Shown piece after piece: positions 30,713 to 37,879 of a stretch of 64,000 bases of DNA. This stretch comes from Escherichia coli. Lineage in GTDB: Bacteria; Pseudomonadota; Gammaproteobacteria; Enterobacterales; Enterobacteriaceae. Where the stretch lies: NCBI RefSeq assembly GCF_003334815.1, contig NZ_QOWO01000001.1, one strand, 5' to 3'. Numbering within the stretch: position 1 is the first letter of the stretch; each line of letters starts with the position of its first letter. Position numbers and translations under genes: made by a program. The notes under the pieces are model-generated. The model searched no databases and was not told where the DNA came from. It saw nothing but the letters and a program-made list of their open reading frames with translations.

Positions 30713-30740
30713 GAATTCGCCAGACTGTGTCTGGCGAATC
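30713..30740. repeat. Solo 28-nt palindrome (CAGAC-NNN-GTCTG family), 14 nt after the gltD stop
   Basis: ATTCGCCAGAC (30715-30725), loop TGT, then GTCTGGCGAAT (30729-30739). Both arms are identical to the arms of the first palindrome inside yhcG (37013-37039). Confidence 0.9.
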
Positions 30741-31258
30741 AAATTACTGACGAAGTGCGCGTTGTTTTCTGGCAAATGCGGCATGAGCGTTTGACCTTTC
30801 CTATAATAGGGATAATTTTCAATAAATTGTGCTTTGTTCACCAAGTCTGATGAGTGAAGCACATCAAGCAATTTCTCATTTACAATCCGTCTCAATTACT
30901 TGTTAACACCTCTGACAATACCGATTCTGCAAGCTATTCAGTCTTTTCATTCCATGTAAATTGTCTCGATATTAATATACAAAATATGAATATAAAAAAC
31001 CAATATATTATCCTTAATTATCTATATATTTTCCTATTTTTCAGCGCAAACATTCATGTAATGAATAATTGTCACCACAAACCACCTCACCAGCACCTTA
31101 TTATTCACATGATCGTAACTATAAAATTCATTAAATAAATACATCCCAGCAAGTTGGCTATTTCTGAACGAGTTATTTATTTACATTCACAAACAGATAT
31201 ATATACTGCTTCAGCTTTTTATTTTAAAAAATAAATTTGTTATTAAGGATATGTTCAT

Positions 31259-32023
31259 ATGTTTTTCAAAAAGAACCTCACAACAGCTGCTATTTGTGCA
31301 GCACTTTCTGTTGCAGCATTCAGTGCCATGGCAACAGATTCAACTGATACAGAATTAACTATCATCGGCGAGTATACCCCTGGTGCATGTACCCCAGTTG
31401 TTACGGGCGGCGGCATTGTTGACTATGGGAAACATCATAACAGTGCGCTGAATCCGACCGGTAAAAGTAATAAACTGGTTCAACTGGGCCGCAAAAACAG
31501 CACATTAAATATAACCTGCACAGCACCAACGCTAATTGCTGTAACCTCCAAGGATAACCGTCAGTCGACCATTGTAGCGTTAAACGACACATCCTATATT
31601 GAAAAAGCTTATGATACTCTCGTAGATATGAAGGGAACGAAAAACGCCTTTGGTTTAGGTTCTGCGCCTAATGGACAAAAAATTGGCGCTGCATCCATTG
31701 GTATTGACAGGTCTAATGGTGGGATTCACGCGGCGGACGATACAGGTGAAATTCCTGTCGACCTGATTCAAACTGACCACTGGTCAGCAGCGACCCCCAC
31801 ATGGAAAGCCTCATCTAATGGCGCATTCTGCTCGCTGACAAGTTGCTCAGCAATCGAGCGCGGTTATTCTGTTGCAAAAACAGGGGAACTGACACCTGTT
31901 GCCATTACAGCGGTCACCTTCCCGTTACTGATTGATGCTGCGGTAAATGACAATACTATTCTTGGTTCTGATGAAACGATCAAACTGGATGGTAACGTCA
32001 CTATCAGCGTTCAGTATTTATAA
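31259..32023 (+). CDS. gltF: Secreted fimbrial-subunit-like protein (DUF1120-type), historically named a glt operon protein
   Basis: 254-aa ORF with signal peptide MFFKKNLTTAAICAALSVAAFSAMA. It is clearly paralogous to YhcF: GACTPVVTGGGIVDYGKH vs AACTPILSNGGVVNFGSH, and C-termini IKLDGNVTISVQYL vs IELDGKAVISVVYL. Confidence 0.9.
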   Translation: MFFKKNLTTAAICAALSVAAFSAMATDSTDTELTIIGEYTPGACTPVVTGGGIVDYGKHHNSALNPTGKSNKLVQLGRKNSTLNITCTAPTLIAVTSKDNRQSTIVALNDTSYIEKAYDTLVDMKGTKNAFGLGSAPNGQKIGAASIGIDRSNGGIHAADDTGEIPVDLIQTDHWSAATPTWKASSNGAFCSLTSCSAIERGYSVAKTGELTPVAITAVTFPLLIDAAVNDNTILGSDETIKLDGNVTISVQYL

Positions 32024-32194
32024 GAACTTGTAATACAGTTTTTATTTTTACGCATTAACCAGTTAGCTATAACTCGGACAGATTATGCCCTATGACATGG
32101 TCTGTCTTAATCAATCTCATCGCAAACAGTGCATAACATATATTAACAATATGTTTCTGCGTTATTTATCATTATTACAGGAGTTTTAATTTAA

Positions 32195-32869
32195 ATGCTC
32201 AGACACATTACATTCACTGTATTTATAACAACATCAATGAATACCTTAGCCACAGGGATGGTTCCTGAAACATCAGTATTGCTGGTTGATGAAAAGCGTG
32301 GTGAAGCTAGTATTAATATTAAGAATACAGATGATCATCCTTCATTGCTTTACACCACCATTGTTGATTTGCCTGAAAGCAATAAATCAATTCGTTTAAT
32401 CCCGACTCAGCCCGTTATTCGTGTTGAAGCCGGTCAAGTACAACAGGTTCGATTTTTACTTCAGGCGACTGTTCCTCTGCAATCAGAAGAGCTGAAACGC
32501 GTAACGTTCGAAGGTATTCCACCAAAAGATGACAAGAGCAGCAGAGTTACTGTTTCAATTCGTCAGGATCTACCTGTACTGATCCACCCGGCTTCCCTGC
32601 CGGAAGAGCGAGAGACCTGGAAATTCCTGGAATGGCGTAAAAATGGCGACCAAATTGAGATTAGCAACCCCAGTAATTATGTCGTTCGTATGACCTTACA
32701 ATTTAAAACGCTCCCTTCAGGAAAAACGGGGGCTATAAATAAGACCTATTTTCTACCACACACCAGTACAACTACTGCATTAACAAACGCTACGGATACA
32801 AAAGTCGAGTTTTACCCAGCCAGCCGATATGGTTATCGCGGTAATAAATATGTCACTGACTTAAAATAA
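32195..32869 (+). CDS. yhcA: PapD-like periplasmic fimbrial chaperone
   Basis: 224-aa ORF with a signal peptide and a chaperone-like two-domain pattern, placed upstream of the usher gene. Confidence 0.88.
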   Translation: MLRHITFTVFITTSMNTLATGMVPETSVLLVDEKRGEASINIKNTDDHPSLLYTTIVDLPESNKSIRLIPTQPVIRVEAGQVQQVRFLLQATVPLQSEELKRVTFEGIPPKDDKSSRVTVSIRQDLPVLIHPASLPEERETWKFLEWRKNGDQIEISNPSNYVVRMTLQFKTLPSGKTGAINKTYFLPHTSTTTALTNATDTKVEFYPASRYGYRGNKYVTDLK

Positions 32870-36526: not shown

Positions 36527-36710
36527 TAACAATGCCGGACAGGAGTACTATCAGGCATTCGTTTTATACGATCGGTTAATGTTTCAGGAAAGCTCTTCGC
36601 ATATCTTGGGGAAAGTAAATGTAATACGCTGTTCTTAATTGTTCAGTGCTCACCCCCCAGAGTATAGCTCATTCCATTATTCAACTTAGCTCCATATAAA
36701 GGGACAGATA

Positions 36711-37838
36711 ATGGAATCGCTCTCAGAAGGAACCACAGCAGGCTACCAGCAAATCCACGACGGTATTATTCATCTGGTCGATAGCGCCCGGACGGAAACG
36801 GTACGTAGCGTTAACGCGTTAATGACCGCGACGTACCAGGAAATTGGCCGACGAATTGTCGAATTTGAACAAGGTGGCGAGGCCAGGGCTGCGTATGGTG
36901 CGCAGCTAATCAAGCGACTATCAAAGGATTTATGTCTAAGGTATAAGCGTGGGTTCTCTGCAAAAAACTTACGCCAAATGAGGCTTTTTTACCTCTTTTT
37001 TCAACATGTTGAAATTCGCCAGACAATGTCTGGCGAATTAACACCATTGGGAATTCCGCAGACACCGTCTGCAGAATTCCCATCGGCAAAGATTTGGCAG
37101 ACGCTGTCTGCCAAATCTTTCCCCTTGCCCAGGTCCACCTACGTCCGTTTACTTTCCGTTAAAAACGCTGACGCCCGCAGCTTTTATGAAAAAGAGACGC
37201 TCCGCTGTGGCTGGTCTGTTCGCCAGCTAGAGCGGCAAATTGCGACCCAGTTTTATGAGCGGACACTACTGTCACATGACAAATCAGCCATGCTGCAACA
37301 ACACGCTCCTGCCGAGACGCATATTCTTCCGCAACAGGCGATACGCGATCCCTTTGTGCTCGAATTTCTGGAATTGAAAGATGAATATTCAGAATCCGAT
37401 TTTGAGGAGGCGCTGATCAACCACCTGATGGATTTCATGCTGGAACTTGGGGATGATTTTGCCTTTGTTGGTCGGCAGCGAAGGTTACGCATTGATGACA
37501 ACTGGTTTCGTGTCGATCTGCTGTTTTTCCACCGCCGTTTACGCTGCCTGCTAATCGTCGATCTAAAAGTGGGCAAATTCAGCTATAGCGATGCCGGACA
37601 GATGAATATGTATCTCAACTACGCCAAAGAGCACTGGACGCTACCGGATGAAAATCCGCCCATCGGTCTGGTTCTCTGTGCAGAGAAAGGAGCCGGAGAA
37701 GCGCATTATGCTCTGGCAGGTTTGCCTAACACCGTTCTGGCAAGCGAATATAAGATGCAACTACCTGATGAGAAACGACTCGCAGATGAACTCGTTCGAA
37801 CACAGGCGGTGCTAGAGGAAGGCTATAGACGCCGTTAA
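36711..37838 (+). CDS. yhcG: DUF1016/YhcG-family PD-(D/E)XK nuclease-like protein
   Basis: 375-aa ORF. The C-terminal half carries a PD-(D/E)XK-like core, RVDLLFFHRRLRCLLIVDLKVGKF (D...D-L-K), encoded around 37509-37580. The N-terminal half contains three 13-aa I-x-Q-T-x-S repeats. Confidence 0.88.
   Translation: MESLSEGTTAGYQQIHDGIIHLVDSARTETVRSVNALMTATYQEIGRRIVEFEQGGEARAAYGAQLIKRLSKDLCLRYKRGFSAKNLRQMRLFYLFFQHVEIRQTMSGELTPLGIPQTPSAEFPSAKIWQTLSAKSFPLPRSTYVRLLSVKNADARSFYEKETLRCGWSVRQLERQIATQFYERTLLSHDKSAMLQQHAPAETHILPQQAIRDPFVLEFLELKDEYSESDFEEALINHLMDFMLELGDDFAFVGRQRRLRIDDNWFRVDLLFFHRRLRCLLIVDLKVGKFSYSDAGQMNMYLNYAKEHWTLPDENPPIGLVLCAEKGAGEAHYALAGLPNTVLASEYKMQLPDEKRLADELVRTQAVLEEGYRRR
37013..37120. 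repeat. Three tandem 39-bp units inside yhcG, each a 12-15-bp-stem palindrome
   Basis: First: AATTCGCCAGAC-AAT-GTCTGGCGAATT (37013-37039). Second: GGAATTCCGCAGAC-ACC-GTCTGCAGAATTCC (37050-37080, one mismatch). Third: AAAGATTTGGCAGAC-GCT-GTCTGCCAAATCTTT (37088-37120). The centres at 37026, 37065 and 37104 are exactly 39 nt apart. Confidence 0.95.
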
Positions 37839-37851
37839 TTTCAGCGGTTTC

Positions 37852-37879
37852 GAATTCTGCAGACAGTGTCTGCAGAATC
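37852..37879. repeat. Solo 28-nt palindrome (same family), 14 nt after the yhcG stop, between convergent yhcG and yhcH
   Basis: ATTCTGCAGAC (37854-37864), loop AGT, then GTCTGCAGAAT (37868-37878). The right arm is contained in the right arm of the second yhcG palindrome and the left arm equals that arm's reverse complement; B's own left arm (ATTCCGCAGAC) differs by 1 nt. No U-tract follows on either strand. Confidence 0.9.

Follow-up and report, generated by a model that had tools for sequence, protein, structure and literature searches.

Extragenic copies of the hairpin carried by DUF1016/YhcG genes as probable deletion endpoints beside yhcG in Escherichia coli

Genes of the DUF1016/YhcG family contain a short hairpin that is also found outside of these genes. 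This report concerns two such extragenic copies, S1 and S2, in a stretch of 64,000 nucleotides of Escherichia coli DNA (contig NZ_QOWO01000001.1, assembly GCF_003334815.1), which is referred to below as the window. The copies enclose gltF, the fimbrial genes yhcA, yhcD, yhcE and yhcF, and yhcG, and lie between gltD and nanQ (yhcH). We consider it probable that S1 and S2 are extragenic copies of the DUF1016/YhcG-gene hairpin that serve as hairpin-forming deletion endpoints, the hairpin being a putative cis site for the nuclease. Comparison of homologous loci indicates that DUF1016/YhcG genes carry the hairpin in one fixed frame in the linker of the N-terminal domain, that extra copies occupy the untranslated flanks of these genes and the intergenic DNA of defence islands and mobile elements, and that breakpoints recur at hairpin copies in Escherichia. 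The genetic linkage of the hairpin to DUF1016 genes is strict.

S1 is located at 30713-30740 (GAATTCGCCAGAC-TGT-GTCTGGCGAATC) and S2 at 37852-37879 (GAATTCTGCAGAC-AGT-GTCTGCAGAATC), the latter between the convergent genes yhcG and nanQ; both are supported by covariance-model score and folding, and neither is assigned a strand. Each begins 14 nt past the last base of a stop codon (the gltD reading frame ends at 30699 and that of yhcG at 37838) and the two are identical at 23 of 28 positions, as a first-pass annotation of this DNA had recorded. Three further copies lie in frame on the plus strand inside yhcG (36711-37838, plus strand). U1 (37013-37039; AATTCGCCAGAC-AAT-GTCTGGCGAATT) encodes IRQTMSGEL and scores 44.1 bits, U2 (37052-37078) encodes IPQTPSAEF and has one C.A mismatch, and U3 (37088-37120) has perfect 15-nt arms and encodes KIWQTLSAKSF. 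The units repeat every 39 nt, the gap from one hairpin to the next being 10-12 nt, and translate in frame as IRQTMSGELTPLG / IPQTPSAEFPSAK / IWQTLSAKSFP.

The window has exactly five copies of the core CAGACNNNGTCTG, at S1, U1, U2, U3 and S2. A covariance model built from the homologues of other organisms matched only these five copies in the 64 kb, with E-values of about 1e-5 to 1e-8 (S1, 32.8 bits, E 3e-5; S2, 42.2 bits, E 6e-8; U1-U3, 35.6-44.1 bits), and shuffles of the window gave zero matches to the 28-mer at three or fewer mismatches. As single strands the five copies fold with -15.6 to -24.3 kcal/mol (z -4.1 to -7.8), and the differences between their arms are complementary (CGCC/GGCG, CTGC/GCAG, TGGC/GCCA). 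The 11-nt arms of S1 are those of U1 and the right arm of S2 is that of U2. Both matches had been noticed before and are correct, with the left arm of S2 differing by one base. An asymmetry shared by S1 and S2, which end in GAATC and not in GAATT, had been noticed as well; it is real and corresponds to the coding form GAA-TCx (Glu-Ser) of the units in Kluyvera, Citrobacter and Salmonella. Read in the hairpin frame, S1 gives IRQTVSGES with stop codons on both sides and S2 gives ILQTVSAES.

The consensus of the hairpin is AATT-N3-CAGAC-N3-GTCTG-N3-AATT, with a stem of 10-12 bp and a loop of 3 nt. The homologues compared comprise 80 loci of YhcG relatives with 39-100% identity, from Enterobacteriaceae, Planctomycetota, Acidobacteriota, Cyanobacteria, Bacteroidota, Spirochaetota and several archaeal phyla. 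All 80 hold one to several hairpins at the same codon position, at about nucleotides 245-345 of the reading frame. At 77 of them the hairpin has at least 9 of 12 pairs and its centre always falls on the first base of a codon; at the remaining three it was picked up by the covariance model. The earlier idea that the palindromes are related to YhcG is borne out, as they belong to a hairpin family embedded in DUF1016 genes. The covariance model rests on 74 in-gene units from other organisms (12-bp stem, 3-nt loop, AATT..CAGAC/GTCTG..AATT). Among these 74 distinct units, 11 of the 12 stem pairs show changes on both sides, and the number of compensatory cells is 126 compared with 41.7 in shuffles, none of 500 shuffles reaching 126.

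The palindrome could be the by-product of a conserved peptide, IxQTxSxE, and this motif is recognisable in most homologues. The codons argue otherwise, because synonymous positions are frozen: Gln at the hairpin is CAG in 89 of 89 cases versus 45% in the rest of these genes, Ser is TCT in 80 of 84 versus 18%, and Thr is ACA in 69 of 83 versus 30%. The amino acids also switch whenever both arms change. CAGAC/GTCTG encodes QTxS, the Bacteroidota form CAGTC/GACTG encodes QSxT, GAGAC/GTCTC gives ETxSR and CCGAC/GTCGG gives PTPS, while SSTLLR is another variant at homologue hairpins. Non-coding copies with stop codons retain the stem, and the encoded segment is predicted to be disordered. A repeat conserved at the protein level is thus almost certainly not the explanation. 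Compensatory changes together with frozen synonymous codons indicate that the nucleic acid, rather than the peptide, is under selection, and base pairing is the feature conserved across bacteria and archaea.

The YhcG protein consists of a DUF1016_N domain followed, in its C-terminal half, by a YhcG_C PD-(D/E)xK nuclease domain, and it matches the candidate defence family PDC-S02. U1-U3 fall within the DUF1016_N match, which exceeds the Pfam profile by about 30 residues here. In an AlphaFold model built from 79 diverse sequences (mean pLDDT 72; an earlier model from 19 close homologues had a pLDDT of 47 and was unusable), residues 101-123, which are encoded by U1 and U2, are modelled as a coil (pLDDT below 50) that links confidently predicted helices. 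The segment encoded by the hairpin units is therefore predicted to be disordered. Since the pairing covaries, the codons are frozen and the encoded segment is a low-confidence coil, the 13-residue 'IxQTxSxE' repeat of yhcG is the translation of the hairpin, a tolerated passenger.

The number of units varies. Alleles of yhcG carry one, two or three units and differ in whole 39-nt steps, so that events between units alter the repeat number. An allele of 307 residues has a deletion bounded by TTCGCCAG repeats, and an arm of U1 supplies one of them. The motif count in 120 further homologues is 1-5 per protein, two being commonest, and in the two multi-unit genes examined every unit is a DNA hairpin. 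Distant plasmid homologues (about 30% identity) retain the hairpin, some with other cores or loops. The stem in Rhodococcus is 15 bp with a different core, and stems in Legionella and Moraxella have loops of 7-9 nt. Pseudarthrobacter has one hairpin in the gene and one with identical arms 69 nt upstream, and a Tenacibaculum gene (L087) has no internal hairpin and a perfect copy 42 nt upstream of its start. In several A+T-rich homologues (L044, L045 and others; nucleotides ~265-290 of the reading frame) four or five U come after the hairpin on the antisense strand (..GTCTGGAATTTTTGA), which gives it in these lineages the look of an intrinsic terminator that works one way only, on antisense transcripts.

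A palindrome of this kind could also persist with no function, if template switching from arm to arm outpaces mutation and the palindrome is tolerated only in a flexible linker. Several observations fit this. The loop is ACT or AGT in 56 of 91 units and complementarity frequently continues into it (A-N-T), hairpin copies at one locus evolve in concert, the mismatches have no strand-specific wobble pattern, and the linker is predicted to be disordered. The retention of the hairpin in all 80 homologues, at one codon position and over bacterial-archaeal distances, is difficult to reconcile with it, and to our knowledge no other coding palindrome persists comparably. In addition some lineages substitute hairpins with another core or loop, and the Tenacibaculum gene, which lacks the internal copy, has one in its 5' flank. 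A functionless, self-correcting palindrome is therefore regarded as unlikely, and the cis-site reading is preferred.

To gauge the association with DUF1016 genes independently of the protein, metagenome contigs were scanned with one exact pattern, AATTNNNCAGACNNNGTCTGNNNAATT. At least 122 occurrences were found in 120 stretches. Among the matches listed, 92 of the 122 lie inside a DUF1016 homologue at the equivalent residue and 5 lie 41-85 nt outside of a DUF1016 gene, which places 97 in or within 85 nt of such a gene; the other 25 are on contigs with no detectable DUF1016 homologue. In viral contigs 16 of 28 pattern matches are inside DUF1016 genes. The covariance model matched nothing unrelated in 1.3 Mb of flanking DNA. 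The orphan copies are members of the family and not chance matches, as the NNN positions are complementary in nearly all of them. They are non-coding, often clustered, and found in defence or mobile contexts, for example between a Cas9 fragment and AbiEi/AbiEii or beside integrases.

Solitary or clustered copies of this kind, in unrelated intergenic DNA near Cas9/AbiE, integrases and truncated IS3 transposases, would be expected of a small mobile palindromic element that inserts into genes (in frame) and into intergenic DNA, like Rickettsia palindromic elements or miniature inverted-repeat elements. A copy number of 1-5 per gene is also compatible with this. The first-pass annotation had named such an element as one of three options, among which it did not choose. 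The solitary copies elsewhere speak for that part of the proposal, but the copies showed no target duplications or terminal repeats, no cognate transposase was seen, the in-gene copies are always in the same family, site and frame, and multiplication within the gene resembles tandem duplication. We regard a mobile element as very unlikely and S1 and S2 as members of the gene-borne hairpin family.

Some of the orphan contexts deserve description. In an IMG/VR contig (L223, 4620-6200) a SocA/PemK-like toxin-antitoxin pair sits between an AAA/PDDEXK_9 gene and a phage integrase and is flanked by two direct repeats of about 150 nt, each with two hairpins and a DUF1016 fragment (..ARNFYEIEA..). In three human gut contigs (L133, L157 and L185) an IS3-family transposase frame stops abruptly at an identical hairpin pair, which a fourth (L137) also carries; L133 has a second hairpin pair 3 kb off. 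A mobilisable element with NikA/MobC genes (L220) has a pair of hairpins at 9937-9986 that abut and have a single AATT in common; a gene for a large serine recombinase lies 15 nt downstream of them. It was considered that solo copies are leftovers of decayed genes, and this was rejected: only 5 of 38 orphan copies, among the matches listed, have a DUF1016 fragment within 1.5 kb by profile, a count limited by the fact that L223 holds short fragments missed by the profile.

The origin of S2 can be traced further. S2 with its flanks (37839-37886, plus strand) is homologous over 48 nt to an in-gene unit plus coding flanks in an alignment to Kluyvera (L015), which identifies S2 as a duplicated gene fragment. 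It lies in the yhcG frame downstream of the yhcG stop (FQRFRILQTVSAESLK), and a 391-residue allele (P0021) reads through it. Among the loci compared S2 was found only in Escherichia, and the orthologous copy in E. fergusonii and E. whittamii has a compensatory arm change, CTCC/GGAG versus CTGC/GCAG in E. coli. S1 was also considered as the remnant of a longer yhcG fragment, and this was rejected because its similarity ends at the 29-nt palindrome, whereas that of S2 extends.

The position of S1 and S2 just past stop codons, S2 between convergent genes, could suggest that they are ordinary 3'-end hairpins, i.e. terminators or mRNA-stabilising stem-loops that resemble the yhcG units by chance. 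S1 stands in the place that the gltD terminator takes in other haplotypes, and where the whole interval is absent (see below) the one palindrome left is the sole hairpin between gltD and nanQ. Neither S1 nor S2 has a U tract (their tails are AAATTACTG and TTTAAAACG) and a terminator scan called neither on either strand. A model based on other phyla scores both as members of the family, and the flanks of S2 are homologous to coding sequence. It is highly improbable that they are ordinary 3'-end hairpins, although S1 and S2 may have a secondary, co-opted role at 3' ends.

For the 7.1-kb block between S1 and S2 the possibility of island junctions had been raised, with the question whether the fimbrial operon and yhcG come and go together. 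Comparison with other genomes shows that they do not, and does not support a block gained whole as one island. Alignment breakpoints against an E. coli genome with no fimbrial insertion (L081) show that the haplotype-specific segment is 30702-36582 (plus strand), which consists of the gltD-gltF spacer with S1 and the beta chaperone-usher locus gltF-yhcA-yhcD-yhcE-yhcF. This segment replaces 54 bp that hold an ordinary gltD terminator, and the window is collinear with L081 from 36583 rightwards. S1 lies 11 nt in from the left end of the insertion, which has placed it 6 kb upstream of yhcG. The order gltB-gltD-yhcG-nanQ-nanK with no fimbrial genes is found in cryptic Escherichia, E. whittamii, E. 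fergusonii, Citrobacter, Klebsiella sp. and Salmonella arizonae. In Pseudocitrobacter, Kluyvera and Salmonella enterica gltD-yhcG is retained and other genes follow downstream, and in E. albertii just the 5' part of yhcG remains beside gltD. In the relatives that lack the fimbrial operon gltD ends in an ordinary terminator hairpin and S1 is absent. On this evidence gltD-yhcG-nanQ is taken as the ancestral order into which only 30702-36582 was inserted, and the fimbrial operon is a separate, later insertion with S1 at its left end.

The arrangements were counted in 5426 complete E. coli genomes by BLAST coverage thresholds. The gltD-terminator-yhcG junction is present in 3142 genomes, the S1 junction in 1223, yhcD of the fimbrial operon in 1135 and the 3' half of yhcG in 3709. 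A single palindrome lies between gltD and nanQ in 946 genomes (17%) and yhcG is truncated at U3 in 716 (13%). Representatives of three haplotypes (the window, L081 and L235) differ by 3.5-4.8% in the flanking gltD and nanQ-nanK sequences (29300-30699 and 37898-39200). This divergence seems large for the species and hints that the haplotypes are old or were imported.

The sequence of the single-palindrome haplotype is TAA-GCGAGGTAACAAT-GAATTCGCCAGAC-AGT-GTCTGGCGAATT-TATAAAACGAGC...TTTTAAGCC. Its left 13 nt are the exact left flank of S1, a flank found only in the fimbrial haplotype, and its right side is the right flank of S2. The interval lost is 30741-37879 (no strand), from the right end of S1 through S2, and the crossover point within the palindromes could not be determined. 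Since all of the outgroups are yhcG-only, the parsimonious order of events is from yhcG-only to the fimbrial haplotype, followed by loss between S1 and S2. An event between S1 and S2 thus appears to have removed the gltF-yhcG interval and left one palindrome in 17% of the complete E. coli genomes.

Two other arrangements have breakpoints at hairpins. E. albertii has gltD, its terminator and yhcG up to about codon 100, U1 included. Next comes a hybrid hairpin, the left arm of which is internal-type and the right arm that of S2 (AAATTGGCAGAC-ACT-GTCTGCAGAATC), and beyond it the right flank of S2; this indicates a deletion between an internal unit and S2. This junction was found in none of the E. 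coli genomes searched. In the 716 E. coli genomes with a truncated gene, yhcG ends exactly at the last paired base of U3 (GTCTGCCAAAT|), so that the 3' edge of U3 is the breakpoint, and about 470 nt of foreign DNA stand in place of the 3' two-thirds of yhcG and S2. The foreign DNA in E. coli 120899 (L246, 9113-9585) encodes a 101-residue protein annotated as 'transposase' and has its own terminator hairpin; in L245 this reading frame is a 71-residue version, shortened by IS1, with no Pfam match. The S. arizonae type strain has a frameshift at the hairpin of yhcG. In Salmonella bongori (L242 and L243, 9075-9876) yhcG is a pseudogene with frameshifts, truncated about 130 nt past the hairpin, and the loss there is not bounded by the hairpin.

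A site with one palindrome had been predicted as the empty site, and it exists in the 946 genomes with the left flank of S1 and the right flank of S2. It could be read as the unoccupied attachment site of an island that comprises the whole gltF-yhcG block, integrated at a pre-existing palindrome so that S1 and S2 are hybrid junctions. Direct repeats at both ends and one copy at the unoccupied site, with the exact 13-nt left flank of S1, are what an attachment site would give, and in L223 hairpin pairs flank a toxin-antitoxin cassette near an integrase. However, S1 is missing from the outgroups and from 3142 E. coli genomes, which are arranged gltD-terminator-yhcG-S2, and the collinearity of the window with yhcG-only genomes begins at 36583, so that yhcG and S2 predate S1 and the fimbrial operon. 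The block consists of fimbrial genes and yhcG only, and no integrase, transposase or other recombinase is among the reading frames of 30702-37851. The repeats in L223 are 150-nt gene fragments and not minimal sites. The polarity given by the outgroups makes the single-palindrome site a deletion product, so that the suggestion of att-like scars is not supported, and integration at an attachment site is quite improbable.

How such deletions would come about can be proposed from known behaviour of palindromes. Bzymek and Lovett reportedly described palindrome-stimulated deletion in E. coli in 2001. Two hairpin-forming direct repeats may misalign at replication and give a deletion; alternatively, breakage at a hairpin or cruciform may be followed by re-annealing. 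Palindrome-linked deletion by misalignment or breakage is known in E. coli (cf. PMC11754738).

The reason for the maintenance of the hairpin may lie in the protein. The hairpin could be kept as a putative cis site for the gene's own NucS-like structure-specific nuclease, for self-regulation or self-recognition, and such a site could work from the coding region or from either untranslated flank. This is proposed because the encoded protein is the only factor common to all these bacteria and archaea besides the core machinery, and because the nuclease domain is nearest to NucS/EndoMS and the copies lie in the gene or in either flank. In a fold search with the predicted structure NucS/EndoMS was the nearest structural relative of the nuclease domain, the other relatives being structure-specific or ancillary nucleases. 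The same search gave no relatives for the N-terminal domain, and a sequence search of the PDB with YhcG gave no relative. The family was tied long ago to archaeal junction resolvases and DUF91 (PMC1189080). The units in one gene differ in their arms, yet each keeps its pairing, which argues for recognition of an intramolecular fold and not for sequence-specific recognition of a duplex.

Several points weigh against these conclusions. Binding or cutting of the hairpin by YhcG is putative, and the origin of S1 is left unexplained. The single palindrome is not a simple chimera of the S1 and S2 of the window, as it has the loop AGT and the right end AATT, and its core is the one found in U1 in other strains. 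The representatives of the haplotypes are diverged to about the same degree, so that the polarity of the deletion rests on outgroup parsimony. The true register is 89% paired compared with 20-40% in slid registers, a figure inflated by the choice of units by pairing. The metagenome scan used a single pattern, about one fifth of the copies among the matches listed are on contigs with no detectable DUF1016 gene, and few of the orphans (the 5 of 38 given above) have a gene fragment nearby. The palindromy of the loop (A-N-T) fits a functionless, self-correcting palindrome as well. A role of the hairpin in the sense-strand mRNA is not favoured, because the mismatches show no sense-strand tolerance of G.U: there are 6 G.T versus 14 A.C in one set and 4 versus 17 in another, counts that are small and phylogenetically clumped. 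The lack of a wobble pattern and the complementarity in the loop would fit DNA at least as well as mRNA.

A more far-reaching proposal is that the DUF1016/YhcG gene and its hairpin form an unrecognised nuclease-plus-site system, in which the hairpin, as a cruciform, single-stranded DNA or RNA, would be the substrate or ligand of the NucS-like nuclease within whose own gene it is carried in frame, in bacteria and archaea alike. Where the hairpin has been copied outside of the gene, the nuclease would drive cassette-like excision, truncation and exchange of neighbouring genes in defence islands. We put this forward tentatively and hold it to be possible but not probable. If it is true, the presence or absence of gltF-yhcG in E. 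coli is one visible product of such a system.

A number of known systems resemble this one in part. S1 and S2 match the covariance model of the DUF1016/YhcG-gene hairpin family, and S2 adjoins yhcG. Like the hairpin described here, REP/BIME sequences with their RAYT genes are short hairpin repeats tied to one nuclease or transposase gene family, near the gene and intergenic, and their copies promote rearrangements. REP/BIME sequences differ in having an HUH tyrosine transposase, hundreds of copies per genome and a GTAG head, whereas the yhcG hairpin goes with a PD-(D/E)xK nuclease, is in frame within the gene and has few copies per locus. The five copies at one locus in the 64 kb have no GTAG head or likeness to the E. 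coli REP consensus. Rickettsia palindromic elements are likewise translated within proteins and tolerated in a surface or linker segment. They are 100-150 bp long, restricted to the genus and scattered over many unrelated genes, whereas the yhcG hairpin is ~27-33 nt long, present in bacteria and archaea, and confined to one position of one gene family, all in-gene copies among the matches listed being in DUF1016 genes at that position.

Integron attC sites are imperfect palindromes that are conserved by fold and bound gene segments, and excision leaves one copy. In contrast, there is no cassette array here, and the polarity in E. coli is that of deletion and not of reversible insertion and excision. 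S1 and S2 have no R''/L''-L'/R' boxes (RYYYAAC...GTTRRRY) or extrahelical bases, and there is no integrase among the reading frames of the S1-S2 interval, the rest of the window not having been searched for intI. Palindrome-stimulated deletion, by slipped misalignment or by SbcCD cleavage and annealing, also has precise endpoints and leaves hybrid repeats. The classic case is a single long palindrome between repeats over tens to hundreds of bp, whereas the two separate 28-bp hairpins here have 7.1 kb between them (0.8 kb in E. albertii), and their products have become fixed in nature. The omega-RNA over tnpB/iscB and the leader hairpin of rnc that is cut by RNase III are examples of a nuclease gene with its own conserved structured element, and a route to self-regulation is possible for the yhcG hairpin too; it differs from omega-RNA in having no guide-like sequence, in being far shorter and in its linker position in the middle of the gene. 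The regular spacing of U1-U3 is not that of a CRISPR array, since the units are 39 nt apart with gaps of 10-12 nt and are translated in frame. The yhcG hairpin thus groups with the gene-associated palindromic repeats and lacks the defining features of REP, attC and Rickettsia elements.

YhcG/DUF1016 is one of the commonest uncharacterised nuclease families and is listed as a candidate for phage defence; its genes occur on plasmids, conjugative elements and phages as well as in defence islands and type I restriction loci. A conserved structure inside the coding sequence, from E. coli to archaea, is a first handle on what these proteins recognise and how they are controlled, and the 'QTxS' repeat as a translated passenger matters for annotation and domain models. 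No mention of a palindrome or hairpin was found in the searchable literature on yhcG, DUF1016 or PDC-S02. The hairpins would explain a four-state polymorphism between gltD and nan in E. coli (fimbrial operon; yhcG only; both absent; yhcG truncated), the breakpoints of which are set by short hairpins, and the locus would be a natural, population-scale case of hairpin-directed deletion across kilobases.

The remaining observations concern the surroundings of S1, S2 and yhcG. The yhc locus is a known beta-class chaperone-usher operon of phylogroup A that is interrupted by an insertion sequence in K-12 (PMC5216030). The operon is uninterrupted in the window, with yhcE intact at 35262-35813, and in a K-12-like genome (L001, 7742-8924) a 1.2-kb insertion that splits yhcE is this known insertion sequence (PMC5216030). 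In an Enterobacteriaceae bacterium (MGYG-HGUT-00110; L016, 4000-9900) a different fimbrial operon occupies the same spot between gltD and yhcG; its proteins are 29-44% identical to YhcA, YhcD and YhcF, and it has other junctions and no S1-like copy. The spot between gltD and yhcG may be a recurrent insertion site. A divergent stationary-phase non-coding RNA, G0-10703, overlaps the 5' untranslated region of yhcG by 128 bp (PMC7967276), and this region (about 36580-36710 in the window, upstream of yhcG) does not reach the hairpins. A search of 30000-38500 against Rfam 15 at E of 10 or less gave two chance-level matches to eukaryotic families, neither at a palindrome. The arm 10-mer TTCGCCAGAC is also present at 1990 (minus strand), 21667 (plus) and 54928 (plus), and these occurrences were rejected as family members because they are not palindromic. 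With one mismatch or none this 10-mer has 17 matches in the window compared with 4.4 expected, and the excess may be a codon-pair effect.

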